Shown here in pieces: positions 5,964 through 39,128 of a stretch of 40,791 nt of DNA. The position numbers and the translations under genes were made by a program. Under the pieces are notes generated by a model, which was not told the DNA's origin, did not search any database, and saw nothing but the letters and a program-made list of their open reading frames with translations. The DNA comes from Candidatus Woesearchaeota archaeon (GTDB lineage Archaea > Nanobdellota > Nanobdellia > Woesearchaeales > 0-14-0-80-44-23), in the NCBI GenBank assembly GCA_026394965.1, contig JAPLZQ010000095.1, positions 1 to 40,791 on the forward strand, written 5' to 3'. Each line of letters opens with the position of its first letter. Positions within the stretch are counted from its first letter, which is position 1.

Positions 5964-6006
5964 GCGCACTCTGGAACAGCAGCAGAATAATTGAATGATG
6001 TGTTTT

Positions 6007-6978
6007 TTATAGTTTTTTTATTCTTTCAATGTCAGATTCAACCATCGTCTTAACAAGCGCGGAAAAGCTCATCTTGGGCTTCCAGCCAAGCTCTTTTTTT
6101 GCCTTTGCCGTGTCTGCAAGAAGCAGGTTCACATCAGCGGGGCGCATGAATTTCTCATCAACCTTCACATATTTCTGGTAATCCTTTATTCCCGCTGCCT
6201 TGAATGCCTCTTCAACAAACTCCCTTACAGTATGGGTTTCGCCTGTTCCTATGACATAGTCTTCCGGTTTTTCCTTCTGGAGCATAAGCCACATCGCTTC
6301 AACATAGTCCCCTGCAAATCCCCAGTCCCTCTTGGCATCAAGGTTTCCAAGCCTTAGCTCATCCTGAAGCCCAAGCTTTATCCTTGCGACTCCGTCAGTT
6401 ATTTTTCTTGTTACAAACTCAATTCCCCTTCTTGGGGATTCATGATTGAACAGTATTCCGTTGCACGCAAACATTCCGTAGCTCTCTCTGTAATTTACTG
6501 CCGTCCAGTATCCGAAGAGCTTTGAAACGCCGTAAGGGCTTCTTGGGTAAAAAGGGGTTTTTTCAGACTGGGGAGTTTCAGCTGCCTTTCCAAAAAGCTC
6601 GCTGCTGGATGCCTGGTAGAATTTTGCCTTGCATCCGCTGATTCTTAATGCCTCAAGAACATTCAGCACTCCAAGCCCGGTTATCTCTGCTGTTGTTATC
6701 GGGCTTTTCCATGAGTGCGCAACAAAAGACATTGAGGCAAGATTGTAAACTTCGTCTGGCTTTGAATATTCCACAGCCCGTATTATTGAGGAAAGGTCTG
6801 TCAAGTCCCCCTCAATCAGCTCAATCTTACTTAGAATGTGCTTTATTCTTTCTGTGCTTTCAGTGCTTGTCCTTCTGATAAACCCGTAAACCTTATAATC
6901 CTTTGAAAGCAGGAACTCTGCAAGGTAGCTTCCGTCCTGCCCGGTTATTCCTGTTATAAGAGCGCTTTTCTGTTTCAT
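6007..6978 (-). CDS. gmd: GDP-mannose 4,6-dehydratase
   Basis: [39 protein letters not shown] and [11 protein letters not shown] are the canonical Gmd signature blocks. Confidence 0.95.
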
Positions 6979-14630: not shown

Positions 14631-17480
14631 CTACTTTTTTCCGTCCCAAAGAACCTTCCAGGTGTAGATGTCCTCTCCGGTAAGCTCTTTCTGCTGGTCA
14701 AAAAGCTCAAAATGCGAAAGCCCTGCGCCGTTAAGGAAGAACAGCCGTGTGAAAATGCTCTTTGAAAGTTCCGGAGATGAGACTGTTGTGCTGTAGCCGT
14801 TGTTTGAAGAGAGCACTATTGAGTATGGGAAATCCGGATTTTCATAATGTTTCTCATCCACATCCCCTGTGCTTGTCACATACACAAACGAGTGGGGCAG
14901 AAGCCTTCCCTGCGGAACCTCTATTCCTGCATCCCTTGTTGTCAGGTTTATCACAATGCTTATTGTCTGCCCCTGAATGTTGTTCAGGCAGGTTATTGTT
15001 AAGTTGTCAGAGCTGCAGCTTCCCCCTATTGATATGTAAGCTGGCCAGGGTGAAATCCAGTTTTCATCATCCCTGCTTGTTGAAAGCGACTGAACATCAT
15101 ATACTGCCCTCTCAATCTGCTCATCTGAGTAGTTGAACTCCTCTTTCATGAATTTCTTGGCTTCCTCAACTTTTGAATTTTTTATGCTCAAAAGTATCTT
15201 TGCCTTTTCAAAATCCCATAGCCCGAAATGAGCCCACACCCCTGATTTTCCAATCATGTCTCCGCTTGTGATAAGGTAATCCTCAGGCGGGTTGCAGTGC
15301 GTCTCTTTAAGGACTCTTTCAGCATCCTCTTTTGTTATGTGCTTTAGAAGTTCTTTTTCTGCGCTGCTTCTGTCCATCATTATTATGCTTCTCAGCAGCT
15401 TGACTGACTTTTCAGTGTCATTCAGTGTGCTGTCTACTATGTCAAATGAGTCTGTGGCGCCGCAGTCAAGCATTCTGAGGACTGCAATTGCCTCATCCTC
15501 ATTTTCTGTTGCAAGTATCCTTCCAAGCCAGTATGCCTGGGGCCTGTTCTGAGTTGCCCCATCTGCTGATACAGCCCTGTCTCCGACATATTTGAACCAG
15601 TGCCCGAAATCCCACCATGAGTTTATTATTGCATCCTGGGATGAATTGTTCTTTATTTTTGTGAGAGCATCATACCATGCATCATTCATATTTGGAATGT
15701 ATCCCCTTCCTGACTCATATCCTGCTTTAATTGGGTTTATCAGCATAACCATGAAAAGCAAAAAGATTATTGCTCCGGCAATTCCCTTTTCAATTTTGAA
15801 TTCCTTTGAGGCAAAATCATTGAGCCACTTGTGGAAGCTTCCAATTGCTATTCCCACTGCAACTGCAAATGCAGGAACAAGGAGCATGCTGAACCTGCTT
15901 CCGGTAAGTGTTGCATAATATGTTCCAAAAAACCATATTATGAGAAGGATTCCTATCTTTATGTCAAAATGCCCGTGGGAATCTTTCTTGAAAAATGCGA
16001 TTATTATCCCTAAAATTGAAAGCACAAAAAACAGCCACCCTCCGACTATTGTGAGTATAGTGTCAAATGTCCCCGGATTCATTTCTGCAACAGTAAGATA
16101 AATGTTCGGCCAGAGAGCTTCATGAACAACTTCTTTTATCAGCAGGAAATTCAGCGGCTCAATTGGCGCCATGTAAAATGTTGAAAATCCAGAGAATATG
16201 CTTACAAACACGCATGAGGATAGTATAAGAGCAGCAGTCATAAAAATTGCATTCTTAAACGACTTGCTTCTGATTGCCTTTCCAATGCTTTTTTCCCTTT
16301 TGTAATTTGCAAAGACAAGGTATGCAAGGTATATTCCCATCGCGCCCATCACAAAGTCAAATATGTACCACCAGCCAGGCCAGGCAACGCTGAAAATCCC
16401 CATGAAAAGCCCGGTGAGCCCCATAAAAGCGAACCTTGCCTTGTTGTTCTTGGCTTCAAATCCCTCAATGATGCTCCACACTATAAGAATTGGGAAAACA
16501 ACATTGTATACATCTGTGTCAGAGCCAATTGTCCTTGTGATGAACATTGGGTTTACTGAAACCAGGACTGAAGTTATTACCGCGCCTGTGTTTCCGGCAA
16601 GCTTCTTCCCTATGAAGAATGCTGCAACTGCGCCTATTAATGCAAAAACGAGAGGAGTATAGAAAGACGCCTGCATTGTAGTCATGTTCCTGTTGAATGC
16701 CTTAAGCACACGATAAAGCCAGGCAATTGAATATGGATGAAGTGAAAAATAAACCGGAGCGCCCAGCGGAGCAGTCATGTGGTTGTCCCATTCAATTGTG
16801 TCATTCACAAGAATGTCGCCCTGCCTCCCGTATTTTACAATATTATCCGCATATCTCAGGAAGAAGTATGAGTCCAAATCCCCAAGGTAAGTATAGCTCT
16901 TTCCGTTAACATCATACTGGAGCTTTGCCTTGAAAAAATTGGCTGTCTCCTTAACCTGCCCTGAAATCACGCTTCCCTGCGTTTTCAAAAGCTCGCTGAA
17001 CTGCTTCTCAACCAGGAGCTGTCTGTTCTCCTCAGGAAGGTTCGGGTAAAGCGAGTTAACCTGCGCAGATATCGTGTTCCGGTAATATCCGTAAACGCTG
17101 CTCTCTGCCCAGTCATTTGTAATTGAAAGCACATTTGGCTGTATCCTTATGAAAATAGTAAGAATTATGGGTATCAAAAGCAGGAGATAGGAAATCTTTT
17201 CATTTTTAAGAAATTTGAATGCGCCCTTCCGGCTGAAATTTTCCTCATTTTCCTGCTCTTCATTTCCTGGTTTTTTTGCCCTGAAATTCCAGTTTTTCCT
17301 TTTGGCTTTTTCCGGGCGCGCTTTTGCCTCTTCTTCAGATTTTCCTCTTCTGAATGCTTTTCTCAGGTCAAATGAGAACTCATCATCTTTTGGGCTCTCT
17401 TCTTTTGTTTTTTCAGATTCAGTTTTATTCTCAATTATTTCTGCATCTATGGCATCATTTTTTCCAGCATTATCTTCCAT
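14631..17480 (-). CDS. aglB: archaeal oligosaccharyltransferase AglB (STT3 family)
   Basis: WWDFGHW (the WWDYG motif). GDLDSYFFLRY is a DxD-type first-loop motif. There are 13 or so TM helices and a soluble C-terminal domain. Confidence 0.9.
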   Translation of the reverse strand: MEDNAGKNDAIDAEIIENKTESEKTKEESPKDDEFSFDLRKAFRRGKSEEEAKARPEKAKRKNWNFRAKKPGNEEQENEENFSRKGAFKFLKNEKISYLLLLIPIILTIFIRIQPNVLSITNDWAESSVYGYYRNTISAQVNSLYPNLPEENRQLLVEKQFSELLKTQGSVISGQVKETANFFKAKLQYDVNGKSYTYLGDLDSYFFLRYADNIVKYGRQGDILVNDTIEWDNHMTAPLGAPVYFSLHPYSIAWLYRVLKAFNRNMTTMQASFYTPLVFALIGAVAAFFIGKKLAGNTGAVITSVLVSVNPMFITRTIGSDTDVYNVVFPILIVWSIIEGFEAKNNKARFAFMGLTGLFMGIFSVAWPGWWYIFDFVMGAMGIYLAYLVFANYKREKSIGKAIRSKSFKNAIFMTAALILSSCVFVSIFSGFSTFYMAPIEPLNFLLIKEVVHEALWPNIYLTVAEMNPGTFDTILTIVGGWLFFVLSILGIIIAFFKKDSHGHFDIKIGILLIIWFFGTYYATLTGSRFSMLLVPAFAVAVGIAIGSFHKWLNDFASKEFKIEKGIAGAIIFLLFMVMLINPIKAGYESGRGYIPNMNDAWYDALTKIKNNSSQDAIINSWWDFGHWFKYVGDRAVSADGATQNRPQAYWLGRILATENEDEAIAVLRMLDCGATDSFDIVDSTLNDTEKSVKLLRSIIMMDRSSAEKELLKHITKEDAERVLKETHCNPPEDYLITSGDMIGKSGVWAHFGLWDFEKAKILLSIKNSKVEEAKKFMKEEFNYSDEQIERAVYDVQSLSTSRDDENWISPWPAYISIGGSCSSDNLTITCLNNIQGQTISIVINLTTRDAGIEVPQGRLLPHSFVYVTSTGDVDEKHYENPDFPYSIVLSSNNGYSTTVSSPELSKSIFTRLFFLNGAGLSHFELFDQQKELTGEDIYTWKVLWDGKK

Positions 17481-23100: not shown

Positions 23101-23275
23101 TGTTGAGGCAGACGGCGAAATCTCAAGGGTTTTGCTCCTGACTCTCCCAGAGGACACGCCCGAGGGAGTTTATGACGTTAGATTCACTATCAATGACGAC
23201 ATAAGAAGGGTAAAGCACAGAAGCATCATAGTGAAAAAAACCTGCTGCAGAAGTTGCTCATGCAGCAGCTGCTGA
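20108..23275 (+). CDS. giant cysteine-rich secreted repeat protein
   Basis: Domain order:
- signal peptide;
- (PT)6 linker;
- CGNGVINTGEQCE motif;
- three ~219-aa Cys-rich repeats;
- four short WGxWSxC repeats;
- a CARDB-like C-terminal domain;
- a CCRSCSCSSC tail.
No TM anchor. Confidence 0.9.
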   Translation: MKSKISKSLLFIFMFAAVLLLSAGFASSACDPLVDPDCGDDPIEPPCIGCYPTPTPTPTPTPIVLCGNGVINTGEQCEMPGTSNNNYCVQSMHQCSGNKYGSRDMYGNCNSACGCSNDAFTYSCSFGNCGSECDAAHSCASTDCDYLDGCQGNYYYDYHDVSNSCTGDCGCTENSCTAYTATVNDPRCVECNVDSDCDSRDKTYCSGDSVVSVEGKCVSHKCTDSSPSIVENCNSLDRDYCEGTSIKNDDGYCSFGECKVTKTNVLNCNDGLFCNGVESCSAGNCVSGSSVDCSANDIFGISSCNNVPDGNSLTWDYRASFDSTCNEASDSCTAGIYSISHSCSVNSCGAECDAAHGCSATDCDWKDGCVGKDYYDYSDVSNSCLGGCSCTDNVCAAPVISYNDARCGECVSDSQCDYLDSDFCSGDSVFHVEGKCINYDCVSGTAALVQNCNSLDRNFCEGTSIKNDDGYCASGACYVSTSTVMNCNDGLFCNGVESCSAGNCVSGSSVDCSSNDIFGISSCNNVPDGNSLTWDYRVSFDSTCNEASDSCTAGIYSISHSCSVNSCGAECDVVHGCADTYCDWKDGCVGKDYYDYSGVENSCLSGCACENNVCRAPTIYYDDERCSDHCLNDNDCNYLDSDFCSSDSVMHIDGMCISGICSSSTPSLVGDCTLLDRNFCEGSIVKEDTGYCANAECRITTSILMNCNDGLFCNGVESCSAGNCVAGSSVDCSGNDVFGVSSCNNVPDGNSLTWDYRASFDSTCNEATDSCTAGSSAISHSCSVDSCGAECSNGQVEVRSCTYGGIQSRSCTDSCIWGIWSNCENEGVCTPGTKESRECGYCGTSERVCLENYQWGLWGSCSGAGVCVSGLVDYEMCGKGGSRFRTCDDSCYWGAFSNCTDEKECYPGTIEEEKCLIFGVRKRICQSNYYWGSWSSCTFPRGDIAINQLQIINEDCIQPGEDLTALVDFSMLGYHEQEVKITAVIPDLSLRSRIGPIDVEADGEISRVLLLTLPEDTPEGVYDVRFTINDDIRRVKHRSIIVKKTCCRSCSCSSC
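20477..22450 (+). repeat. three in-frame tandem repeats of 657, 657 and 660 nt
   Basis: Units start at the Cys codons 20477, 21134 and 21791, and the array ends before 22451. Each unit begins CS(F/V)xxCG(S/A)EC and ends SISHS/AISHS. Confidence 0.95.
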
Positions 23276-23576: not shown

Positions 23577-24824
23577 ATGAAAAATTTTTGGTTAATTTTG
23601 TTTGTTGTTGGAATTATAACAACAGTATTTGTTAGCGCACTGCCAACAGTAGAACAGCTGAAGATAAACGGCGATGTCTTTGAGACTGGAGACACATTAG
23701 TTGTTGAAAGAGGAGAGACACTTGACATCAAGGTTAAGCTTCAGGCAGAAAATGTTGAGAAGAATATAGAAGGAGATGCAGTTATTCTTGGTTATGAATA
23801 CAATGACCATGAATCAATCTCAGACTCAACTCACCTATTCGACATGGAAGCAGGCGATACTGTCTACAAGACTATGCAGATAAAGGTGCCAGAGAAGACA
23901 GAAAAGGACTTCTACGACTTGAGAATCAGGTTCGGCACAAGGACAGAAGACGCATTTGAAGGAAGATACAGGCTTCACATTGTTGAATCAAGACATGATG
24001 TTGTCATAAAAGACGTCGTTTTGAGCCCAGAAGGAACAGTAAAGTCCGGAAGAGCTTTGCTCGCAATTGTAAGAGTGAAGAACATGGGCGCAAAGGACGA
24101 AGACGGAATAAAGATCAAGGTTTCAATACCAGACCTTGGAATCTCAGGCTCTGAATACATTGACGAGCTCAAGGCAGGAGAGTCAACATCCTCAGAAGAG
24201 ATATACCTCAAGATACCAACATGCGTTGCATCAGGAAGTTATGCAGTAAAGGCATCAATTGAGTATGATGAATCTTATGAAGAATCAACATACACAACTG
24301 AAATTGACATAGTTGAAGAGGATGTCTGCAAGGCAAAGGCTACAACTGTTGAAGAGAAGACAGAAATAATGATAGGCGCAGTAAGCCAGTCTGTCAAGAG
24401 AGGAGGAGCAGGAGCAGTCTATCCAATCACAATAAAGAACGCAGGAAACTCAGCACAGACATATATAGTGTCAGTTGCAGGAGTAGATGACTGGGCATCA
24501 GTCCAGATATCACCTAGCGCTGTGTTCATCGTTCAGCCAGGCGAGCTGAAATCAGCTTATGTCTACCTATCCCCTAGAGAGAACGCAGCTGAAGGCGAAC
24601 ACGTGTTTAGCATAAAGGTTGGATCAGCAGGCGAGGAGAAGCAGATTCCGGTCAGTGTAGTGGTCTCAGGAAAGCCAGCCAACTCTTGGACAAATGTCAA
24701 GAGAGGGCTTGAAATTGCTGGGATCGTCTTGGTTGTTTTGCTTGTAATATTGGGCATCATACTTGCCTTAAACAGGCTTGGCGGCAAAGAGCACAAGGAA
24801 GAAGAGAACCAGACCTACTATTAA
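23577..24824 (+). CDS. membrane-anchored CARDB-like surface (S-layer-like) protein
   Basis: Signal peptide, three beta-sandwich-like modules (VRVKNMGAKDEDGIKIKVSIPDLGISGSEY...; ITIKNAGNSAQTYIVSV...), and a C-terminal TM helix GIVLVVLLVILGIILAL. Confidence 0.85.
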   Translation: MKNFWLILFVVGIITTVFVSALPTVEQLKINGDVFETGDTLVVERGETLDIKVKLQAENVEKNIEGDAVILGYEYNDHESISDSTHLFDMEAGDTVYKTMQIKVPEKTEKDFYDLRIRFGTRTEDAFEGRYRLHIVESRHDVVIKDVVLSPEGTVKSGRALLAIVRVKNMGAKDEDGIKIKVSIPDLGISGSEYIDELKAGESTSSEEIYLKIPTCVASGSYAVKASIEYDESYEESTYTTEIDIVEEDVCKAKATTVEEKTEIMIGAVSQSVKRGGAGAVYPITIKNAGNSAQTYIVSVAGVDDWASVQISPSAVFIVQPGELKSAYVYLSPRENAAEGEHVFSIKVGSAGEEKQIPVSVVVSGKPANSWTNVKRGLEIAGIVLVVLLVILGIILALNRLGGKEHKEEENQTYY

Positions 24825-28418: not shown

Positions 28419-28562
28419 ATGAAGAAAATAAGTTTTCTGGCATCTGCTTTAATGGCATTACCCATCTTTTCCGTTCTTATTTCGAGACGCAATAAAAGGG
28501 GAATCCTTTCCTTTTTTTTAATTTTTAAAAATTCCCAAATAAAAATAAAAGGCAGGGAGTGA
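28419..28562 (+). CDS. possible 47-aa membrane peptide (not in ORF track)
   Basis: The ATG is preceded by AGAGGTG with a 7-nt spacer. Translation is MKKISFLASALMALPIFSVLISRRNKRG.... The stop overlaps the next gene start (GTGATG). A T8 run inside the ORF (28512-28519) argues against it. Confidence 0.3.
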   Translation: MKKISFLASALMALPIFSVLISRRNKRGILSFFLIFKNSQIKIKGRE

Positions 28563-28567
28563 TGGTC

Positions 28568-28762
28568 ATGAATGCGCTAAAAATTCAACAAATGCCCTAC
28601 AAAAAGATTGTCTGGCAGGAAACCCCCCAGTCAGTGAGGGTTATCCAGGGGATTTATTCAGAGGAAGGCGACTTTGTGAGGGTAAAGGGCGATTACAAGG
28701 AAGTCCTCATAAGAAAGGACAGGATAATTTCAATTGAACACAAGCAAGCGAGGGGTGATTAA
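28568..28762 (+). CDS. small soluble protein (64 aa), unknown function
   Basis: SD-like GGGAGTGAT ends 5 nt before the ATG at 28568. The track lists GTG 28559; ATG 28562 is also possible. The stop lies 1 nt before the TTG start of the next gene. Confidence 0.6.
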   Translation: MNALKIQQMPYKKIVWQETPQSVRVIQGIYSEEGDFVRVKGDYKEVLIRKDRIISIEHKQARGD

Positions 28763-28763
28763 T

Positions 28764-29684
28764 TTGAAAACCAAGCAAGCAATGAAGGCATTAGCAGTAT
28801 TAATCCCTGTGGCTTTCATATTATATTTCTGGCTGGCGTCCTTCCTGCTCTTTTCAGGAGGGGCTATTGCCGCCACGTATTGGGATGTAAACGCAACTGT
28901 CAATGTGACAAATGTGGCTTCAAATGTCACTTTAGTGACAGTTGATGACAATACCCCATCACCGCCCAACCAGATAGACCTCACTGCAGGAGGGACAACT
29001 ACAGTATACTGCAACGGCACAATAAATGACACAAACGGATATGCAGACATAGCCTCAGCATCAGCCAAGCTTTATGATAATGTTAGTGCAACTGCAACAA
29101 GCGCTGACAACAACGAAACACATTACACTAATGGAAGCTGCTCGCTTGACGTTGGTTCAGGGATAACGAGGAATGCAGTGTGCGCATTTAGCCTGCTCTA
29201 CTACTCAAACAACCAAAGCTGGATATGCAATATAACCGCACTTGATTTAGACAGCGCATCTAGCTCAGGAGTTGATGGAACAGCTGTCAATTTGCTCCTC
29301 GCGCTGAATATATCAAACAACATAATTAACTATGGGAACCTTGCGCCAGATGAAACTTCAGCATCAGGCGCGACAGAGAACATCACAAACCATGGCAACA
29401 CCCAGATTGACCTCAAATTGAACGGCACTAATATGGCGTGCAGCAGCGTAGGAAGCATAAATGTGGAAAGGCAGAGATACAATGTTACCGGAACAGATGA
29501 GGCATATGCCACACTGAAAAACCTCACTGGAACAGCAGCAACAACCACCACATTTGATCTGGTGAAGAGAACAGATGCACTGGGGCAGGACAGCAAGAGG
29601 GTTACATACTGGAGAATTCAGGTTCCTCTCGGTGTAAAAGGCAGGTGCGACGGCAATGTGACATTTGCGGCGATTGCAGGATAA
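28764..29684 (+). CDS. sequon-dense secreted glycoprotein, short paralogue (candidate fibre/surface subunit)
   Basis: SD GGGGTGAT precedes TTG 28764; the alternative start is ATG 28782 (MKALAVL...). There is an N-terminal hydrophobic helix followed by GGAIAATYWD. I count 16 N-x-S/T sequons. The C-terminal ~250 aa are paralogous to the end of the 678-aa protein. Confidence 0.85.
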   Translation: MKTKQAMKALAVLIPVAFILYFWLASFLLFSGGAIAATYWDVNATVNVTNVASNVTLVTVDDNTPSPPNQIDLTAGGTTTVYCNGTINDTNGYADIASASAKLYDNVSATATSADNNETHYTNGSCSLDVGSGITRNAVCAFSLLYYSNNQSWICNITALDLDSASSSGVDGTAVNLLLALNISNNIINYGNLAPDETSASGATENITNHGNTQIDLKLNGTNMACSSVGSINVERQRYNVTGTDEAYATLKNLTGTAATTTTFDLVKRTDALGQDSKRVTYWRIQVPLGVKGRCDGNVTFAAIAG

Positions 29685-29780
29685 ATTTTTTTTATTTCCA
29701 ATTCTTTTTTTTAATTAATTGCCTTTCTTTAACCCTGTCCTTCTATCTCATTTTTTGCAGCATCAATTTTTTTTATGCTG

Positions 29781-29956
29781 AAAAACGGCGCTAAAACTCA
29801 ATACTTTAGTTTGGAGATACAGCGCCGTTTTTGGCACAAAGAAATGCTATGACATTTCTTGAACAAGAAATTCCTTTGGAATTTCTTTGTTTCTCTGGGC
29901 GCAAGAAAACTCTTCAAGTTTTCTGCGCACAAGAAATCTCAGAGATTTCTTTGTGC
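29781..29956. repeat. array of one long and four short tandem hairpins
   Basis: A 12-bp stem: AAAAACGGCGCT (29781-92) with AGCGCCGTTTTT (29821-32). Four hairpins follow with arms AAGAAAnnn / nnnTTTCTT:
- 29839-60;
- 29865-87;
- 29899-928;
- 29927-56.
The inner stem bases differ between units but stay complementary. Confidence 0.8.
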
Positions 29957-30393
29957 TTTAGTGCGGAGTAGGATGCTCTCAGCGGATTTTTATGATTATC
30001 TTCTTGTCTTGTGCTCTCTCATCTCATATTTTATTAGCATTTCATATTCTGTTTGCAATTGTTTTTTTCTGTTATTTTGTTTGTTTTCTTTAACTATCTT
30101 CTTTTTTTTATTTTCCTTTTTAAATTATTTATTTATTAAAGCATAATTTTTTATACTCGCTGCTTTTTTATAAATTGTAAAAGCATAAAGAAGTGATAGA
30201 ACAAAACAAATTGATAAGATAATGTGATAAAATAAGATATAAAATAAGAAGAATGATGCTTTGAGCAGCCTTGAACAGTATAGTGTCAAAGGTGGTTTAA
30301 CTGAAAATCAAAACGAATTTCTTTTTTGGATTAGTTCTAATTGAAATATTTGTTCTTCTCACCCTGTTTCAAGCAAAAAGTGTTGTTGGGACT

Positions 30394-32430
30394 GTGGGAA
30401 GTTCCGGTTTTGAATTCTTTACTGATGCAATAAATGTTACTCCCTCCACAGTTGGAAGCTGGACCGCTGTTGATGTTTCTTCTTATGTTCCAAGCGGGGC
30501 AACAGGAGTTCTTCTCGCTTTTGTTAATAATGGGGCTGCAAACTACATGATTGTTGCAAGGCATCCTGACAGCACGGATAATTTTTACACTGCAAGCACC
30601 ACTGATGTAAGGATAACATCGCAAATATACACTGTAACTTCAATAAATAGCAGCAGAATTTTTGAAGCAGCCAGAGAAAATAGCGCTTGTAATATATACC
30701 TCTTGGGATACACTGATGAAGAATTTGGCCTGTTTACAAATATGGTTAACATTACAAGTCTTTATTCAGGAACAGGAACCTGGCAGGATATGAATGTGAG
30801 CAGTTATGTTCCGGCAGATGCAAAGGGAATAATACTTAGGGTTTATTCTTCAACAGCTGCAAACGTAATTGTTGCAAGAGCTGATGGGAGCACTACAAAC
30901 TGGAATGATTCTCAGGTTATTGCACAGGGCTGGTACACAATAATAATAAAAAACAACAATCAGGTTGTTGAAGGTTATCGCAATTCAGCAAATGGACGCT
31001 TTTTTCTTATAGGATATATAAATGGGACAGCTCCTGTAACAATGTTTACAGACCCTTATGATGTTTCAACAGGCACTGCAGGCAGTTGGGTAAATACTGA
31101 TGTTGGAGGTTATACAAGCACTATTGCAGATGGGGCAATCCTGGTAAGAAAGAATACGGCAAACTCTGTTAAGGCAGGGCAGTCAAGAACTGTGGGAAGC
31201 ACTAATAACTGGTATTCGTCTTCAGATATAAGAAATTATATGGCTCATTGGGAATTTAGCGGACTTAATGGGACACAGTGCTTTCAGCAGAAGATAGAAG
31301 CAAATACCCAGGATTATTATATTATTGGATATGCTGAACCAGAAATTCCCCTAGCGATAAATTTTTCAAACATCACAAGTTCAGAAAATAATTTTTACTA
31401 CAACGCAACCCTTCTCGGCTGGTGCAATGCGACCCAGCCGGACATGCAGAATGTCAGTTACTATTACAAATGGTATTTGAATGGAATCCTTAACAGCACA
31501 GGGCAGACCGCATATTACCCTCCAGAAATATTAGTAAATATTGCAAACATAACCTCAGATAAACTTTCAATCGGGCAGAATTGGACTCTTGAGTGCACTG
31601 CTTATGACGGAATCGTTAATTCCTCAGCGCTCAATTCAACAGAAATAACGATTGTTGACATAAATTCGCTGCCCAATATCACTTCAATATTTGTGGATGA
31701 CGAAACATTTTCCCCTGCAGGCGAGATAGACCTTATTGCAGGAGATTTAAGGCAGGTGCTCTGCAACGGGACTGCTGATGACCCAGATGGCTTCTCTGAC
31801 ATTGACAATGTAACAGCAGTATTTTATGCGAGCGGAAACGGAACATTGCCCACAGACCCAGAAAACAACAACACCCTTTACCAAAACAATTCCTGCTCAC
31901 TATCTGCAGGATATGACACAACAAAAAAGGACTTCAACTGCTCATTTTCGCTTTTCTACTATGCCCAGAATGGGACCTGGACATGCAATGCAACTGTTAA
32001 TGATACAAAATCAGAAGCTTCATCATCTATAGCAACTTCAAACGTAAACAATCTCATTGCCCTCAATGTATCCTCGCTTGAAATTAATTATGGAAATCTC
32101 GCAGCAGGAGGCGAGTCTGCATCTTCAGTTGTTTTTTACATAACGAACCTTGGAAACACAAAAATTGACCTTTCATTAAACGGAACAAACATGAGCTGCG
32201 CAATAGGTGCAATAGGCGCATCATATCAGCATTACAACATAACCGGGACAGACCAGGCATATTCCCAGATGAAAGCGCTTTCAAATTCACCCTTCCTTTC
32301 CTCGAACTTTGACCTTAATAAGAGAATCACAGCTGATTCCGACAGGACAACATACTGGAGAATTCAGGTTCCTTCGGGAGTAAAAGGAAAATGCACAGGA
32401 GTAATAAGCCTTTCAGCTCAGCAGGGCTAA
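30394..32430 (+). CDS. sequon-dense secreted glycoprotein, long paralogue (start uncertain)
   Basis: The first canonical start is GTG 30394. The frame is open from 30301 and there encodes a signal-peptide-like LKIKTNFFFGLVLIEIFVLLTLFQAKSVVGT. The protein has three ~100-aa N-terminal modules. Its C-terminal ~250 aa are shared with the 316-aa protein. I count 31 sequons. Confidence 0.85.
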   Translation: MGSSGFEFFTDAINVTPSTVGSWTAVDVSSYVPSGATGVLLAFVNNGAANYMIVARHPDSTDNFYTASTTDVRITSQIYTVTSINSSRIFEAARENSACNIYLLGYTDEEFGLFTNMVNITSLYSGTGTWQDMNVSSYVPADAKGIILRVYSSTAANVIVARADGSTTNWNDSQVIAQGWYTIIIKNNNQVVEGYRNSANGRFFLIGYINGTAPVTMFTDPYDVSTGTAGSWVNTDVGGYTSTIADGAILVRKNTANSVKAGQSRTVGSTNNWYSSSDIRNYMAHWEFSGLNGTQCFQQKIEANTQDYYIIGYAEPEIPLAINFSNITSSENNFYYNATLLGWCNATQPDMQNVSYYYKWYLNGILNSTGQTAYYPPEILVNIANITSDKLSIGQNWTLECTAYDGIVNSSALNSTEITIVDINSLPNITSIFVDDETFSPAGEIDLIAGDLRQVLCNGTADDPDGFSDIDNVTAVFYASGNGTLPTDPENNNTLYQNNSCSLSAGYDTTKKDFNCSFSLFYYAQNGTWTCNATVNDTKSEASSSIATSNVNNLIALNVSSLEINYGNLAAGGESASSVVFYITNLGNTKIDLSLNGTNMSCAIGAIGASYQHYNITGTDQAYSQMKALSNSPFLSSNFDLNKRITADSDRTTYWRIQVPSGVKGKCTGVISLSAQQG

Positions 32431-32557: not shown

Positions 32558-33739
32558 ATGAATAAAAAAAATGCGGCAATGATTTTTTTAGCGCTTGCGC
32601 TTATCCTTTTTTCATATAACACATTTGCAAGTTTGGGAGTGAGCCCCGCAACATTGAGGTTTCCAAACCTTCTCAGGGGCGGATTTTCCCAGAGAAGCAT
32701 TCTCATAAGCACAATGTCAGATGCAATGAAAGTGGATATTCATGCAGAGGGCAATATATCATCATGGCTCAGCTTTTCAAATTACACAATTAATGTTTCA
32801 GCAGGGAATTCAAAGCCGATTAAGGTTTTTGTAAAGCCGCCTATTGACGTCCCAAACGGCAACTACAGCGGGTATATTGTTGTAACAAGGAAGCCCCTTG
32901 AAACGCAGGCTCTCTCAACAGGCATTGGAAATTTAGTCATAATGAGCGTGAATATCCCTGTTGATGTTGTTATAACTGACATTGAAACAATTGACTGCAC
33001 TGCAAACTCATTTTTAATCTCTGATGCTGAAGAGGGAAGCCAGCCCAAATTAGCAGTTTCAATAATAAATTCGGGCAATGTCAGGATGAGCCCGGTTATA
33101 AGGGCAGACATCTGGGACCAGGAAAAAGAGAATGCATTGGAATTCCTTGAATTCAATGCAGATGAGATTCTTCCAAGCGTTGAGCAGCAGTTTGAATTTT
33201 CAATGCCCCTGCAGGAGCTTCCTGTCGGGCAGTACTGGGCTCAAATGTCTGTTCCGGAATGCAGGAATTCCGAACTCTTGACATTTGACATCTTGAAGAA
33301 AGGCTCGCTTACCACAAGCGGAAAGCTTATCCAGATAAAAAATTTGCCATGGCTGAATTTAGGCGCTACTGCAAAAATCAGCGCGATATTCAAGAATGAC
33401 GGGAAAAAGGATGTTTCAGCCAGGTTTAAGGGGATTGTATCAATTGACGGGCAGATTATAAAAGTTCTTGAGTCAGAGCAGTTAAACATTCCCGTTGGAG
33501 AAACAGTTGACTTAAACACTTTTTTCAAGCCCGAAGCCATGGGAAGGTATGTGATATCAGGCAAGGTTTACTATGACAGGAAGGTCACATACGAGCTTTC
33601 CTCAATTCTTAATGTGATTGAAGGGAAAAAAGGCATAAGCGGGATAACAATTGCATACATTGCGATAATTGCAATAAGCCTTTTCCTGCTTTTCATCATT
33701 TTCAAGAAGAGGAGGAAGAAAAGGGTGAGAAGGTTCTAA
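32558..33739 (+). CDS. membrane-anchored protein with tandem Ig-like modules
   Basis: Sec-type signal peptide ending TFA. The LGVSPATLRFPNLLRGG...ILIST pattern and a second similar module both look like beta-sandwich folds. C-terminal TM helix plus KKRRKKRVRRF tail. Confidence 0.8.
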   Translation: MNKKNAAMIFLALALILFSYNTFASLGVSPATLRFPNLLRGGFSQRSILISTMSDAMKVDIHAEGNISSWLSFSNYTINVSAGNSKPIKVFVKPPIDVPNGNYSGYIVVTRKPLETQALSTGIGNLVIMSVNIPVDVVITDIETIDCTANSFLISDAEEGSQPKLAVSIINSGNVRMSPVIRADIWDQEKENALEFLEFNADEILPSVEQQFEFSMPLQELPVGQYWAQMSVPECRNSELLTFDILKKGSLTTSGKLIQIKNLPWLNLGATAKISAIFKNDGKKDVSARFKGIVSIDGQIIKVLESEQLNIPVGETVDLNTFFKPEAMGRYVISGKVYYDRKVTYELSSILNVIEGKKGISGITIAYIAIIAISLFLLFIIFKKRRKKRVRRF

Positions 33740-33755
33740 AGAATTTTACAGGCAT

Positions 33756-35516
33756 TTAAGGATACTTTTTTGAGAAGTCAATATAATAGGCGTCCATTAT
33801 TTTTATCTGATAATTCACCTTTACAGTTGTAAGCTCGGGCTTGGTTGAGCGTTTTATTGTGTATTCTGCAATGAAACTCTCCCCTTTTGACAATTCAGTG
33901 GCGCTTATCATAAGCATGTTCCCGCTAATCTCATTTTTTATGTCTCCAGATGCTTTCTTTGAAATGCTTACCTCTCCGACAATCTCCGAGTTTTCAGGAA
34001 TTACCTCAGAAAGGGCAAGGTTTTCAAGCATTGCACTTCCTAAATTAAGCACGCTTATCTGAATCCTGAACTTTGAGTCCTTGCAGGGGAAAATGCGCTT
34101 TGAGATTTCAAGGGGGTCCCTGCTCCTTCTCTTTTCTGCAAGCCATGCTTTAATCCATATGAATAATAGGAGCAGAATAAGAATGATTAAATTTATTGCA
34201 ATAAGCGAAATTACAGATGTAGGGGGTATAAATTTCGGAAGCTCTGTTCTCGGCGTTTTAACTGACTCAAGAATTATCTCATACTTCCCGCCGAGTCTTC
34301 TTTCATATGAAATCCTTATGTCCTGCTGTTCATCCTTGTCCAAATCCACAAGCGTTTCAGCGGGCTTTCTGAAAAGGAATCCGGGACCGCTGAAGAATCC
34401 TATGAATATTGAATCTCCTGACATGTTTGTTAAGGTGAGGAAATAATTCTTGTCATTGTAGATGAAGAACCATATTGGGCCTTCATACGTTGTGACATTG
34501 AAGATGTTTTGGAGCTTGAAGTTTCCGATGTAAATTATCTCTGCCCGGGTAAACCTTGCCGCTTCTTTAGGGGTAAGCTCCTCAACTGGCTTATTTGTAA
34601 TCCCGCTTTCATTTTTATTTTCTCTTATGTATTTCGAGATGAAGACGCTTCCCTTTGCTGCATCTCCCTCCCCCCCTGTCTCATTCCCCATGCTGCCCTG
34701 AGATTCGTTTGTTGTTCCTGCAACTCCTCCCGTTCCTCCTCCCTCATCTCCTGTTTCAATCACTTCCAGAGGAATCACATTAAGAGTGAATATCTCATGG
34801 ATTGCTGAGCAGGCATCGCTTATTACTATTGTAATTATGAATGTTCCAGTATCATTTGCCTGAAAGCTGATAAGCCCGCTTGAATTGTCTATTGTGAAAA
34901 GTGCGCTGTTGTCAGTGAATGAAAGGGAATCCCCGTCAGGGTCGCTTGCTATCACCTTATAGATGAAATAATCACCCTTGTTTATCGTGAATGAACTGAT
35001 TGGGTTTATCAGCGGAGGGCTAGGAGGGCTGTTCCCGAAGCAGTACCGAAACTGCCCGGCATCGCTCCAGTTGCTGTAATTGGCGCTGTCAAAAGCCCGG
35101 ACTCTCCAGTAATAATTGATAAAAGAGTATGACACTATCGGGTTCGTGTTTGTCTTTTCAGGGGTTTCAGATATTCCCGTCTGGTTCACAAGAGTCCCTT
35201 CAGGCGAGAAATTAAGATTGTTTGCAAGAATGAATTCATATGTAACAGAATCCCCGTTTGGGTCAATTGTGTTGTTCCAGAAGAAATTTATGCTCTCATT
35301 GTATGTTAGGGAGTCGTTTTCAGGAAGATAAATATTCGGCTTTAAAGGCGGGACATCTATAACATTCACTCCGGATGATGCAAATCCCGTTATTTTAAAT
35401 CTGCTTTCGGAATTGAAGAATACTGCAAACAGGAATACTGCAGAAAGAAAGCCAATCAGCAGGGCAAATGAAAGCGCGCTCTTGTTAAGGGCGCCCAAGC
35501 GTCCAAAGCCAGCCAT
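33756..35516 (-). CDS. bitopic surface protein with Fn3-like and cadherin-like modules (586 aa)
   Basis: Trimmed to the ATG at 35516 (MAGFGRLGALNK...), 1 nt after the upstream stop. Domain order:
- TM helix;
- YYWRVRAFD Fn3-like module;
- ASDPDGDSLSF module;
- Gly/Thr linker;
- second TM helix;
- ~125-aa DUF11/CARDB-like C-terminal domain. Confidence 0.8.
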   Translation of the reverse strand: MAGFGRLGALNKSALSFALLIGFLSAVFLFAVFFNSESRFKITGFASSGVNVIDVPPLKPNIYLPENDSLTYNESINFFWNNTIDPNGDSVTYEFILANNLNFSPEGTLVNQTGISETPEKTNTNPIVSYSFINYYWRVRAFDSANYSNWSDAGQFRYCFGNSPPSPPLINPISSFTINKGDYFIYKVIASDPDGDSLSFTDNSALFTIDNSSGLISFQANDTGTFIITIVISDACSAIHEIFTLNVIPLEVIETGDEGGGTGGVAGTTNESQGSMGNETGGEGDAAKGSVFISKYIRENKNESGITNKPVEELTPKEAARFTRAEIIYIGNFKLQNIFNVTTYEGPIWFFIYNDKNYFLTLTNMSGDSIFIGFFSGPGFLFRKPAETLVDLDKDEQQDIRISYERRLGGKYEIILESVKTPRTELPKFIPPTSVISLIAINLIILILLLLFIWIKAWLAEKRRSRDPLEISKRIFPCKDSKFRIQISVLNLGSAMLENLALSEVIPENSEIVGEVSISKKASGDIKNEISGNMLMISATELSKGESFIAEYTIKRSTKPELTTVKVNYQIKIMDAYYIDFSKKYP

Positions 35517-35517
35517 C

Positions 35518-38496
35518 TTAACACTCGCCTCTATTCCTGAGAACAGAAAGGGCTTCTTCCCTGCTCCTGACTCTTTCCATTTCTGCTGCAAGCCTTCTGT
35601 CATTGAGGCTTTTTTTCAGCCAGATTGAAAAGTCATTTTTCTCAAAATTCACGTGATAATTAAAGGTCTCAGAATCCATGCTTTCAAGGGCATTCTCAAG
35701 TTCACTTACATTTTTCAGAACCATTCCATTGTAAAGCCTAAGGAAATCCTTTTCATTCAGGGGCTCATCATCTGAAATTTTTTCTTTAGGTTCTCTTGGC
35801 AATGCCCTTGCGCTGTTTTTTTTCAGGAGCTCACTCTTGTCCCTTACTATTTTCTTAGAATCTTCATTAAGTCCGTCAAGGGGAAGCGAGCTTATTATCA
35901 ATGCACGCTCGTCTGCCTGTCCTATCAGATTTTTCCCTGAAAAACTATAATCTGAAGCATAGGAATAAGGGCGGCTTTCTTCATTTAAGCCCTTTTCAAG
36001 CTCTGAGCTTTTTGGGAGTGTACTTTCTATTATGTCATCTATGTCATCTTCCCTGTTCCTTCCAATCCTGAAGTAATAGGCAAGGAGAAGCCCAACAATT
36101 ATCACGCCAATTATTATTCCCGCGTATTTTGCATTTCCCTTTATGCTGTTGAAAACCGAATTTCCAGTGAGCGGGCTTGTTTTTTTATCCTTTCCTTCTG
36201 TCAGGAGGATTGTCTTTATCCCCGAAAGCTCTGATTCTCCTGTCTTTTCCTTGATATAAAATGCTATTTCCAGTTTTTCTCCCTCGGATATTGAACTGTA
36301 TTTCCAGCTTATTATCGGATCGTTTTCTATAATCTGGTATCCCGGAGTGAGGAATTCCAGCATTGAGGAATCCTCTGCAACTGATTTTGGTATTATCACC
36401 ACAATTTCGCTGTTGTTTACTGCTCTGCTGAAAGAGAGGGTTTCAGAAACAAGGGTGTATTCCTCTGTTGAGGATTCATATATTACGCTTAAACTGACTG
36501 GCTTTATCCTTGTGAAAAATATTCCCTGAAGTTCTGATGTTTCAGACATGTATTCAAGGTCAGAGGCGTATTCGCTCCTTGCTTTTGAAATGGCTTCTGC
36601 TATGTCCTCTGAGCCTGCCTGAACCCCGAACTCATTCATATTCTCTGTCCTTATGTCAATCGGGACTGATTTTTCAATTGATTTTATTGAGAGCTCCTGC
36701 CTTGCAAGGTTTGACTTAAGTTCCTCCTCATTTGCGCTTTTTGACTTAAGCTGATTAAGCTCAGAATATATGCTTTCAAGCCTTGATTTGGCATCTTCAA
36801 CATCCTTAAGGAGCCCTATTTTTTCCATAAGGGCTTTGTCTCCCTTTTCCAGAAGGTTCTTCTCCCTCGCTAAAATCTTCTGCATTGATGAGTCAGCAAG
36901 ATTTATCGCATCATCAATCTTTTTCAGAATTGTTGGCGAAAGAGTTGAGTTTCCCTTATTGCTGCTCTTTGTGGAGATTGCATATGATTCAGCTGAAAGA
37001 GCACCCTCATTATCCGCCTTGTCAACTGCTGAAACAGCATAGTAATAAGTTGTTCCTGAAGCCACATTTGTGTCAGCATAGCTGTTTCCTGATGAGTTGG
37101 CGTAAAAGTTGAGCAGGGAAACTCCTGAAGAGGTGCTTCTGTATATTCTGAATCCCTTGACCTCCTCCCCGTCATACCTCCATGAAAGCCTTATGCTTCC
37201 GTCACTTGCGCTGAATGCCTCTATAACAGGGGTTGGCGGCTTTATTGTGTCCACGAGGAATACCTTTCCTTCTTTTATTATGCTGCCGGTAATCCCCCAG
37301 TAATCTGTTGCAGAGAAGCTGAATGAGCCAACCTGGTTGCCCCTGTCGCCCTCTATTATCATGAATCCGTTCCAGATGTTCCCTGAGCCGCTCAGCGGTA
37401 TGGGATATGCTGATGAGCTTCCCAGCTGGTAATTCAGGATTGGGGTTGACTGGACATTCTTTGAGGTTGTAAGAGTCACTTCATAGACGCCCTCTTTCAG
37501 GGGAGATGATTTTGAGATTTCAACTCTGGCAGAGGGCGGAAGGCTTACCTCAAATCTTATCGTGTAATTCTCAGCCATCCTGTTTCCGTAAAGGTCTGTG
37601 CAGCTTATGTAGTAATTGTAGTTCCCTTCTGAAAGCCCTTCCATCTGGTAGGAATGGGTAATCCGGTTATCTGTATGCATTGGTGACATTAGGAGATACG
37701 TTCCATTTTCCCTGCTTTGCCTGCATTCAGATTCCTCGCTTGTTATCACCGTCAATGTTGCATATGATGATACAACTGCGCTCCTTGGCGAAAAATCAGT
37801 TATTATGGGGGGCGTTGTGTCAATAGTTATAGGAACTGAATAGGACTGAGGCATTGTGTTATTGTAGGAATCAGCGCATTTCACAAAGAACTCCATGCTT
37901 CCTTCTGACAATGTTGCGTTGTAGTAATGCTTCTGCCCTGCTCCCAAAAGCTCTGCCTCCATCAATTCATAGCTTTTATCAATGTCTGAAAAAGAGCCCC
38001 TGCATGTTGAGTTCTCATTTGTAGTTATCGCAATCTGGATTTTCGTGCTGTTCAAGGTATTAGATGGATAAACTGAAACTATCTCAGGCGGGCTTATGTC
38101 AAGGCTCAAAAGGACTTTTCCTGCCTTGAATGCGCTCTCAAGAGAGGATGTTCCGTTGAAGAGAGTTGCTGTTATGAAATAGTCGCCCTGTGCTGTTGCA
38201 GTGAATATCCGGGATTTACTAATCGAATAGATTCCTGAGGAGTAGGAGAATTCAGAATCTGAAAATGTGATTTCAGATGGTGCAGCAATGTTGCCGCTTG
38301 ATATTACTGATATTGAGCCGTTGAAGGGATTGTTTGCATCAATTGAGAAGAGCACAGCATTCTCTCCCAGGAGAATATTGGAGTTCACTATTATCTCAAT
38401 TCCCGCGCTTGCAGAGAGGGAAAGAATTATTGTAATTAAAAGTGCCCGCGCCAGAAATAATGTCTCCGTTCCCAGTCCAGCTGTTGTTTTTCTCAT
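35518..38496 (-). CDS. giant bitopic surface protein (992 aa)
   Basis: Domain order:
- signal peptide;
- several Ig-like modules;
- a clear Fn3 module (IRLSWRYDGEEVKGFRIYRS...TTYYYAVSAVDKADNEG);
- a coiled-coil segment;
- TM helix IIIGVIIVGLLLAYYF;
- a ~183-aa C-terminal tail. Confidence 0.85.
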   Translation of the reverse strand: MRKTTAGLGTETLFLARALLITIILSLSASAGIEIIVNSNILLGENAVLFSIDANNPFNGSISVISSGNIAAPSEITFSDSEFSYSSGIYSISKSRIFTATAQGDYFITATLFNGTSSLESAFKAGKVLLSLDISPPEIVSVYPSNTLNSTKIQIAITTNENSTCRGSFSDIDKSYELMEAELLGAGQKHYYNATLSEGSMEFFVKCADSYNNTMPQSYSVPITIDTTPPIITDFSPRSAVVSSYATLTVITSEESECRQSRENGTYLLMSPMHTDNRITHSYQMEGLSEGNYNYYISCTDLYGNRMAENYTIRFEVSLPPSARVEISKSSPLKEGVYEVTLTTSKNVQSTPILNYQLGSSSAYPIPLSGSGNIWNGFMIIEGDRGNQVGSFSFSATDYWGITGSIIKEGKVFLVDTIKPPTPVIEAFSASDGSIRLSWRYDGEEVKGFRIYRSTSSGVSLLNFYANSSGNSYADTNVASGTTYYYAVSAVDKADNEGALSAESYAISTKSSNKGNSTLSPTILKKIDDAINLADSSMQKILAREKNLLEKGDKALMEKIGLLKDVEDAKSRLESIYSELNQLKSKSANEEELKSNLARQELSIKSIEKSVPIDIRTENMNEFGVQAGSEDIAEAISKARSEYASDLEYMSETSELQGIFFTRIKPVSLSVIYESSTEEYTLVSETLSFSRAVNNSEIVVIIPKSVAEDSSMLEFLTPGYQIIENDPIISWKYSSISEGEKLEIAFYIKEKTGESELSGIKTILLTEGKDKKTSPLTGNSVFNSIKGNAKYAGIIIGVIIVGLLLAYYFRIGRNREDDIDDIIESTLPKSSELEKGLNEESRPYSYASDYSFSGKNLIGQADERALIISSLPLDGLNEDSKKIVRDKSELLKKNSARALPREPKEKISDDEPLNEKDFLRLYNGMVLKNVSELENALESMDSETFNYHVNFEKNDFSIWLKKSLNDRRLAAEMERVRSREEALSVLRNRGEC

Positions 38497-38993: not shown

Positions 38994-39128
38994 GGGGACA
39001 TAGTATAACCTGGCTAGAACGTGAGGCTCCAGAAACTGGAGCGCTGAGCGAAAGCGATGAAGAACTTAGGGTATGAGTTCAATACTTGGTGATACCTTGA
39101 GATCGGGGTTCAAATCCCCGTGTCCCCA
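38994..39128 (+). tRNA. tRNA-Trp (anticodon CCA) with a 61-nt intron
   Basis: Cloverleaf elements:
- acceptor stem GGGGACA/TGTCCCC;
- D arm GTAT-AACCTGGCTA-GAAC;
- anticodon stem TGAGG/CCTTG;
- anticodon loop C-T-CCA-G;
- T arm CGGGG-TTCAAAT-CCCCG;
- discriminator A.
No encoded CCA. The mature length is 74 nt after removing 39033-39093 (junction ambiguous by 1 nt). Confidence 0.9.
39033..39093 (+). ncRNA. tRNA-Trp intron with box C/D-like elements
   Basis: The intron lies at the canonical 37/38 site. CUGA (39044-47) follows CUGGAGC, which is complementary to G31-G37. GAUGA lies at 39056-60. AUGA (39073-76) comes exactly 12 nt later. GUGAU lies at the 3' end. Confidence 0.5.

Follow-up and report, generated by a model that had tools for sequence, protein, structure and literature searches.

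Attachment to other cells is believed to be the way of life of DPANN archaea such as the Woesearchaeota, and little is known of its mechanism. A stretch of 40,791 nucleotides (nt) from a Candidatus Woesearchaeota archaeon (contig JAPLZQ010000095.1, forward strand), analysed over its whole length and called the window below, encodes two paralogous secreted proteins, a short one (A) and a long one (B), that share a C-terminal core of about 250 amino acids (aa), the A-module. A sequence-only reading had seen in the pair the candidate subunits of an undescribed surface fibre with signal peptides resembling those of TasA. The question is thus what the A-module does at the cell surface, and whether it builds a fibre at all. 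The locus exposes a very large unannotated family: an exhaustive profile search retrieved 3052 clusters at E ≤ 1e-3, of which 762 reached E ≤ 1e-30. Its members share a constant C-terminal module of two predicted immunoglobulin (Ig)-like domains, preceded by heads that vary greatly and are in part lectin-like. Gene linkage connects the module with a membrane-anchored protein, p393, and with a second undescribed secreted family, Y. We give about an even chance to the idea that the A-module is a glycan-shielded stalk or docking module tethering variable adhesive heads to p393 as membrane anchor. The A-module system would then be a concrete and testable candidate for a DPANN attachment apparatus, and its headless short form would suit structural work.

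Paralogy, sequon density and predicted fold of A and B

A comparison of A with B by BLASTP, with B read in the extended frame described in the last section, gave 48% identity over 259 aa (E 9e-70) and matched A residues 60-316 (in the numbering of a 316-aa A; nt ~28911-29681) to B residues 455-709 (nt ~31663-32427). The shared C-terminal core of about 250 aa that had been claimed for the two proteins is therefore real, and every conserved block listed for it is present. A basic stretch followed by a hydrophobic helix was likewise found at the start of both A and B, and the long protein does add N-terminal modules to the common core, as a head and a middle domain lie ahead of the A-module in B.

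The reported counts of 16 and 31 N-x-S/T sequons were reproduced for A (306 aa) and B, respectively, and are 2-2.5 times those expected from shuffled sequences of the same composition (6.7±2.2 and 14.3±3.3). This amounts to 5.2 sequons per 100 aa in A and 4.6 in B, as compared with at most 2.4 in the other secreted proteins of the window. Within B the density is lowest in the head (2.2 per 100 aa) and reaches 9.5 in the middle domain and 5.6 in the A-module. Across the A-module family the mean is 20 sequons per protein, and 13 alignment columns carry a sequon in at least 50% of the sequences. The AglB locus said to lie nearby was confirmed (Table 1); the AglB/STT3 gene is surrounded by glycosyltransferase genes, and its product is the enzyme expected to glycosylate the sequons of A and B. 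With signal peptides, a sequon excess and 48% identity, the description of A and B as secreted, densely N-glycosylatable paralogues is well supported.

The AlphaFold2 model of A, built from a 37-sequence alignment, has a mean predicted local distance difference test score (pLDDT) of 90.2 and a predicted template modelling (TM) score of 0.74. It consists of a helix at residues 2-30, corresponding to the signal peptide, a coil at 31-53 and two all-beta domains at 54-175 and 181-305, and it predicts the A-module to be two tandem Ig-like beta-sandwiches, not a jelly-roll. Both domains are predicted with 7-8 strands (DSSP on the model), and no strand is obviously missing. Six cysteines (C83, C126, C140, C155, C226 and C295) are invariant or near-invariant, four of them in domain 1 and two in domain 2, which suggests three disulfides.

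The best 50 PDB matches of the A model in Foldseek were two-domain Ig or fibronectin type III (FnIII) proteins, among them RbmA, Fab light chains, CfaE, CsuE and factor XIII, and included no TasA, AbpA, camelysin or thread entry. Scores were E 1e-5, TM 0.19-0.30 and 7-9% identity for RbmA, and TM 0.31-0.35 for CfaE and CsuE. Among predicted viral structures, Foldseek matches included phage tail-fibre, baseplate and Ig-like/Fn3 proteins, alongside many unnamed ones, with only generic Ig/Fn3 resemblance. Searches of PDB sequences with A, B and the A-family profile returned nothing relevant, and Pfam searches with the separate modules at E ≤ 1 gave no assignment, a sub-threshold Calycin_like match being disregarded.

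One segment outside the two domains deserves attention. Among the 10-aa blocks of A, residues 41-50 (DVNATVNVTN) are the most conserved (0.73), but the monomer model shows them as coil, with pLDDT 55-67. This conserved free N-terminal strand, just after the predicted signal peptidase I site, was seen in short A-type proteins only. It aligns with EITIVDIN-SLP immediately ahead of the module in B, a segment that we interpret as the final strand of the Ig-like domain in front of the module.

The motifs GGAIAATYWD in A and GSSGFEFFTD in B had been compared with the TasA box. If that likeness were meaningful, A and B would be subunits of the TasA/camelysin class, with SipW-dependent signals processed by a dedicated S26B peptidase, and would assemble like TasA or the archaeal bundling pili (ABP). 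However, scans of the full proteins against Pfam and NCBIfam gave no match of A or B to TIGR04088, Peptidase_M73 (PF12389) or NF046066, and the isolated N-termini did not match TIGR04088 even at E ≤ 10, whereas Bacillus subtilis TasA, included as positive control, scored 38-42 bits with TIGR04088 (cut-off 19) and 514 bits with NF046066. The 'YWD' box of A is not conserved among 37 aligned homologues. FEFFTD in B turned out to be the first strand of a head repeat of ~105 aa, the second and third copies of which open with FGLFTN and VTMFTD; the three repeats, missed by BLASTP self-comparison, were detected by MAFFT alignment of the three segments, in which they align at 28-36% identity with the motifs in register. 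The resemblance to the TasA box is accordingly superficial, and the tandem Ig-like fold predicted for A is not of the TasA type either.

Inspection of the 37-homologue alignment revealed small residues at positions -3/-1 after the hydrophobic region (ASA, AEA, IFA, VLG, VWA), a pattern that indicates ordinary signal peptides of the signal peptidase I type. A dedicated S26/SipW-type signal peptidase would also be expected on the TasA reading; a tblastn search of the window with the peptidase-like protein of a related locus, L005, found none. In L005 and L008 (Table 1) the A-like gene faces, in convergent orientation, an archaeal-type gene resembling signal peptidase I, with SM-P, GDIV, HRVV and KGDNN motifs, but an S26B-like peptidase beside an A-like gene was seen in these two related loci only, and in none of 15 further loci. 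In L006 the A-like gene is directly followed by a gene (5094-6209, plus strand) for a multi-pass membrane protein with an HEFSH motif and a weak Peptidase_M50 match; among the loci such a protease occurred in L006 only, and the window has none.

A is comparable to TasA and to the archaeal bundling pilin AbpA, which are Peptidase_M73-like and processed by SipW or a general signal peptidase I, in that all have a cleavable N-terminal signal peptide, are beta-rich and, in archaea, N-glycosylated (features that are predicted for A), and are encoded together with a longer beta-sandwich accessory protein. A winged-helix regulator is also found in the cluster of several A relatives, as in the ABP operon (PMC9245690). 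On the other hand, A shows no sequence or profile similarity to TasA or AbpA, has a tandem Ig-like rather than a jelly-roll fold, an unconserved box and no peptidase gene in the window. We therefore rejected the TasA/SipW link, which we regard as highly improbable, and annotators have grounds against propagating the TasA/SipW label for A-module proteins. The variant in which Y is the TasA/AbpA-like major subunit and A the accessory protein corresponding to TapA/AbpB was rejected as well, since Y is missing from the window and has no structural or sequence neighbour in the PDB; the Y family thus does not rescue a TasA-like interpretation.

A constant C-terminal module and its gene neighbours

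Apart from the window proteins, a word-indexed search retrieved 43 proteins related to A and 24 related to B, all of them hypothetical or unnamed, and all those with a named source came from Woesearchaeota or Nanoarchaeota. In the best 150 hits of the profile search, which range from 222 to 5014 aa (95 below 400 aa and 55 of 400 aa or more), no more than a few residues follow the module at the C-terminus, bar a few truncated entries. The parts ahead of the module differ. For the 24 homologues of B the best BLASTP segment spans just 12-51% of B, and in the five that were aligned the common part is C-terminal, behind different heads. Among the close relatives of B the heads comprise the three-repeat type (the window protein and P0045), propeller-like repeats (P0047, P0048) and DUF2341 (P0046, P0049), and in long forms that are more distant, LamG, DUF2341, Big_x or MG2 domains as well as Ig arrays are found.

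No Pfam, NCBIfam or PDB relative was found for the A-module, the B head, Y, p393 or the 67-aa protein encoded ahead of A. The earlier statement that A and B are undescribed is thus upheld, as no described family matches, and by sequence the A-module family appears to be a new DPANN family of a known general kind, namely modular surface proteins that are Ig-like and glycosylated and have a partner for anchoring. Glycosylated surface proteins with Ig-like domains have been reported to be numerous in DPANN genomes (bioRxiv 10.1101/2023.10.27.564410). Sixteen genome loci derived from DPANN metagenome-assembled genomes (MAGs; Woesearchaeota, Nanoarchaeota, Nanobdellati), two MAGs named 'archaeon' and two labelled Methanosarcinales. 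The latter two loci, L014 and L021, one of which encodes a 2237-aa protein, are in MAGs labelled 'uncultured Methanosarcinales archaeon' and could be mis-binned DPANN contigs or reflect co-occurrence with methanogen hosts.

The gene neighbourhood was analysed in six-frame open reading frames (ORFs) of the window and 26 related loci, using a profile for each family. A p393-type gene lies directly 3' of the last A-module gene in eight distinct loci (the window, L001, L010, L012, L019, L022, L024 and L026). A metagenome search from the p393 side added 15 loci, 14 of them with upstream DNA, and in 10 of these 14 an A-module ORF ends at most ~20 nt ahead of p393. A C-terminal transmembrane helix with a K/R tail is present in seven of seven aligned p393 homologues, and by hydropathy A and B are themselves devoid of a C-terminal transmembrane helix or known sorting signal. 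From this arrangement we propose that p393 is a membrane anchor or partner of the A-module proteins.

Two further membrane proteins recur in the neighbourhood. Homologues of p615 occupy the same position in L001, L012 and L027, which makes this gene a conserved neighbour within the lineage of the window. In L028, L031, L033, L035 and L037, p393 is followed by a p992 homologue of like orientation, and in L001, L018, L022, L023 and L025 such a homologue is present in the vicinity. In L035 and L037 the order is helix-turn-helix gene, Y, A, p393, p992-like gene and A-module gene, in a single direction. Related clusters also encode the DUF5752-like segment, which forms the C-terminal ~70 aa of p992, as small separate proteins (L001 7453-7947; L004 13200-14273).

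In about 16 distinct loci, one or two Y genes stand immediately ahead of a short A-type gene, and an ArsR/Lrs14-like winged-helix regulator is often encoded upstream; neither Y nor the regulator is in the window. The Y family has at least 474 members, all DPANN, with up to eight copies per locus. Its members are secreted proteins of ~230-270 aa with the C-terminal motif W-x-G-Y-x-G-N-V-T-G ... Y-Y-F-Y-V-E-L. The AlphaFold2 model of Y (pLDDT 82) has an N-terminal extension, residues 23-54, that is conserved but disordered. No significant PDB neighbour was found for the model, the best being the adenovirus knob (E 0.035, TM < 0.2), and the Y profile found nothing among PDB sequences.

Proposed docking to p393 weighed against fibres, spacers and pilins

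As the module is constant, C-terminal in the sequences inspected, anchorless, glycan-rich and linked to a membrane-anchored Ig-like protein, with variable and often lectin-like parts in front of it, docking or stalk formation is the most economical mechanism. A and B would be exported via Sec, processed by signal peptidase I and N-glycosylated. The A-module, probably held by three disulfides and carrying one sequon per 16-20 residues, would be the constant cell-proximal end of a large class of surface proteins with varying N-terminal parts: a three-repeat head plus one Ig-like domain in B, and elsewhere lectin-like LamG/DUF2341 domains, repeats of a propeller-like type or, in proteins reaching ~5000 aa, arrays of Ig domains. 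Having no membrane anchor of its own, the module would bind the ectodomain of p393, encoded directly downstream, and the membrane proteins p615 and p992 would probably contribute to the attachment. The heads would bind ligands, most plausibly on host-cell or matrix surfaces, and the glycan coat would shield the stalk. The headless A, with its conserved free N-terminal beta-strand, might serve as an adaptor or extension piece, and in most relatives it would work together with the co-encoded, secreted Y proteins. Features of adhesins are present in the A-module proteins: a signal peptide, an Ig-like module, and heads that differ among orthologues and include lectin-like ones.

Several observations weigh against tethering to p393. 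The proposed tie between the module and p393 is read from gene adjacency, and profile-profile comparison of A, Y, p393 and the middle domain of B gave no relationship, hence no hint at an interface among the A, Y and p393 families. Many short A-type genes have Y and no p393 nearby (L004-L009, L015-L018, L020, L023, L025). Residues 41-50 of A are unpaired and strand-like, as the donor strand of a polymer would look, and a short form next to a long one also fits a pilus shaft with a tip adhesin. The non-canonical start codon of B described below, finally, means that B may be poorly expressed in this organism.

These points lead to the alternative of donor-strand assembly, as a fibre or a split adhesin, which we consider possible but clearly the less probable of the two. 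Here the N-terminal strand of A would insert into the A-module of the preceding subunit, giving a shaft that polymerises head-to-tail; B, with a head, an acceptor module and no free donor strand, would be the distal tip adhesin in the manner of FimH, CfaE and CsuE; and p393 would be the membrane-anchored base or an assembly factor. The result would be a chaperone-free archaeal pilus that follows the logic of threads and bundling pili with another fold. In line with this, the strand lies just past the predicted cleavage site, both A and B are anchorless, short forms stand beside long ones and occur in tandem in L009 and L019, and the chaperone-usher tip adhesins CfaE and CsuE, which also have two domains, are among the Foldseek matches. 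Thread and ABP subunits share an SPI-type signal, a conserved N-terminal donor strand and heavy N-glycosylation (PMC9715654; PMC9245690). In contrast, no strand is evidently missing from either Ig-like domain of A, and since the aligned segment upstream of the module in B appears to belong to the preceding domain, that module does not obviously need a donated strand. Likeness to the pilus proteins in Foldseek is generic, L024 and L026 have B-type genes and p393 but no short A, and the module is also borne by proteins of 2000-5000 aa, which would be unusual for pilus tips. The C-terminal position in the best 150 hits and the tight linkage to a membrane partner fit a docking stalk at least as well as a fibre. 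A bolder version, to which we attach a somewhat lower and still tentative probability, is that the A-module system is a DPANN-specific, chaperone-free apparatus for beta-strand complementation that uses the orphan N-terminal strand of short A-type proteins, either by polymerising A into a glycan-coated stalk between a p393 anchor and a B-type tip adhesin, or by capturing separately encoded, exchangeable Y proteins as heads. If true, archaea would have a surface fibre or a split adhesin of a new kind, used in host attachment. Less probable again, though not negligible, is that A and B are generic envelope or S-layer-associated glycoproteins, the module being a spacer without specific partner and the linkage to p393 a matter of co-regulated envelope genes. 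The window indeed contains a run of at least nine secreted or membrane Ig-like proteins, including an S-layer-like one of the PACE-CTERM type, near AglB and glycosyltransferase genes, in keeping with the abundance of such glycosylated surface proteins in DPANN genomes (bioRxiv 10.1101/2023.10.27.564410). A passive spacer, however, accounts poorly for a module at the extreme C-terminus in the best 150 hits of a family of 3052 clusters, for the tight adjacency of p393 that was recovered from the p393 side as well, and for a Y-Y-A gene order conserved in at least 16 loci; together the three therefore speak for a specific assembly role. We see hardly any room for a type IV pilin or archaellin-like protein, in which the helix would be retained after cleavage by a prepilin peptidase and form the filament core, with the Ig-like domains outside. 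The model of A does show a long N-terminal helix (2-30) followed by beta domains, and in L005 and L008 the A-like gene has a Peptidase_A24 gene at a distance of ~2 kb. Yet by inspection the 37 aligned homologues share no conserved [KR]-[GA] site before the hydrophobic stretch, small -3/-1 residues being found after it instead; in B-type proteins, which reach 5000 aa, the module is C-terminal, far from any N-terminal helix; and the scanned ORFs of the window include neither a gene for a pilus ATPase nor one for a platform protein. This reading was rejected on the signal-peptide pattern.

Among known systems, the Sulfolobus thread (Saci_0406, with its cap Saci_0405) and the chaperone-usher pilins with tip adhesins (FimH, CfaE, CsuE) resemble A and B in that an SPI-type signal is followed by a highly conserved N-terminal strand, and in the Ig-like beta-sandwich body and dense N-glycosylation, both predicted for A and B, and the combination of a short subunit with a head-bearing paralogue. 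They differ in that the structural likeness is weak and generic (TM ≤ 0.35), that both domains of A appear complete, that there is no chaperone or usher, that the A-module also ends giant proteins of 2-5 thousand aa, and that polymerisation is only hypothetical here. RbmA, a scaffold of Vibrio cholerae biofilms made of tandem FnIII domains, is the best PDB match to A and is likewise a secreted two-domain beta-sandwich, but with its low TM score and identity the match is a structural one and implies neither homology nor a common mode of binding. As a constant module on otherwise different surface proteins, the A-module can be likened to SlaA/SlaB, to S-layer homology (SLH) domains, to the C-terminal domains (CTDs) of type IX secretion system substrates and to the stalks of fibrillar adhesins. 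As in SlaA/SlaB and bacterial anchoring modules, a membrane-anchored partner is encoded next door, and there are Ig-like glycosylated stalks with lectin-like heads. Unlike SLH, CTD and SlaB, the A-module is predicted to be a folded two-Ig unit of 250 aa rather than a short sorting signal, and it has no sequence relationship to them. The examined loci are, moreover, mainly from Woesearchaeota- and Nanoarchaeota-type DPANN MAGs, and the p393 partner family is uncharacterised.

Coordinates, start codons and minor features

The positions of the genes and of their parts are given in Table 1. The gene order 67-aa gene, A, B and p393, with p615 and p992 on the opposite strand, is identical in L001.

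Table 1. Position of the genes of the A-module locus and of related features. Positions are those of the window unless a related locus is named.
Feature	Position	Strand	Basis
AglB/STT3 oligosaccharyltransferase	14631..17480	-	Pfam STT3 2e-28, STT3-PglB_core
67-aa protein gene, no signal peptide	28559..28762	+	ORF list
Protein A, 306 aa, 'headless' A-module protein	28764..29684	+	TTG start, 43 homologues, AlphaFold2
A, predicted signal peptide	28764-28874
A, free N-terminal strand	28875-28922
A, predicted Ig-like domain 1	28923-29288
A, predicted Ig-like domain 2	29304-29681
Probable translation start of B: AAGGTGG, 5-nt spacer (includes TAA), CTG 30301	30289..30303	+
Protein B, 709 aa, long A-module protein	30301..32430	+	BLASTP against A, repeat alignment
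B, predicted signal peptide	30301-30390
B, head with three divergent ~105-aa repeats	30391-31356
B, middle Ig-like-looking domain	31357-31671
B, A-module	31672-32427
p393: signal peptide, three probable Ig-like domains, C-terminal transmembrane helix, poly-basic tail	32558..33739	+	hydropathy, alignment
p615: two transmembrane helices, FnIII/Big_9-like ectodomains, C-terminal domain	33756..35603	-	Pfam Big_9; transmembrane-like segments 41-66, 457-491
p992: single-pass, large Ig-like ectodomain, coiled-coil, transmembrane helix 787-812, cytoplasmic DUF5752-like tail	35518..38496	-	weak Pfam Big_3_3, Big_13, DUF5752; hydropathy
Y genes (related loci; many copies in L016, L018, L023)	L001 8251-9984; L004 6690-13030; L005 8262-9821
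Archaeal-type signal-peptidase-I-like gene (related loci)	L005 10997-11590; L008 3763-4365	-	TIGR02228, E 2e-10 to 3.5e-11, below cut-off

Two protein lengths in the sequence-only reading required correction. A had been given 316 aa, from an ORF beginning at 28734. The TTG at 28764 is preceded by the Shine-Dalgarno-like site GAGGGGTGA (the sequence reads GAGGGGTGAttaat-TTG) and is also the start chosen by gene callers, and A is therefore most likely 306 aa long. A GGGGTG-type site about 5 nt ahead of the start codon is found at A as well as at AglB and at the genes at 6978 (minus strand), 9014, 18884 and 25206. The 67-aa gene ends 1 nt ahead of the start codon of A, and the ribosome-binding site of A is within its last codons; the two genes are thus probably translationally coupled. 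The 67-aa protein is 87% identical to its counterpart in the same position in L001, also occurs in L007, L012 and L013, and gave no match in Pfam and NCBIfam scans. Its gene is placed between the Y genes and A in L001, L007, L012 and L013.

B had been given 678 aa, from a GTG at 30394, so that the ORF started downstream of the signal peptide, the hydrophobic helix being encoded at 30301-30390. An in-frame TAA immediately precedes 30301, from where the frame is open and reads LKIKTNFFFGLVLIEIFVLLTLFQAKSVVG ahead of GSSGFEFFTD. There is no ATG, GTG or TTG between this TAA and the signal peptide. The spacer of 5 nt between AAGGTGG and the CTG matches the GGGGTG-N5-ATG layout at other genes of the window, and in the orthologue P0045 an ATG-initiated signal peptide aligns with this stretch of B. 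For both reasons B is probably 709 aa long, with a CTG or a mutated start codon; the site at 30289-30303 could be a CTG start, a mutated TTG or ATG, or an assembly error.

The spacer between A and B (29685-30300, 615 nt) holds two adjacent long hairpins at 29781-29956 (plus strand), which are single-copy in the window, have an RNA minimum free energy of -74.7 kcal/mol (z = -8.2 as compared with shuffles) and match no Rfam family. A structured RNA, an array of terminators and a palindromic insertion are all conceivable. The spacer is missing in the syntenic L001, where A and B are 48 nt apart.

Other genes of the window were noted in passing. Upstream of A, a 1055-aa secreted protein with a cysteine-rich N-terminus, a single sequon and no Pfam match is encoded at 20108-23275 (plus strand), followed at 23577-24824 (plus strand) by a 415-aa putative S-layer-like protein of the PACE-CTERM type (NF033506, 102 bits as against a cut-off of 110) with a C-terminal transmembrane helix. 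An Rfam tRNA of 135 nt (41.8 bits) is located at 38994-39128 (plus strand); its length implies an intron, and ARAGORN in default mode finds no tRNA in the window. Amid the glycosylation genes, a Fic/DOC-domain protein (Pfam E 6.6e-19) is encoded at 5037-5963 on the plus strand.

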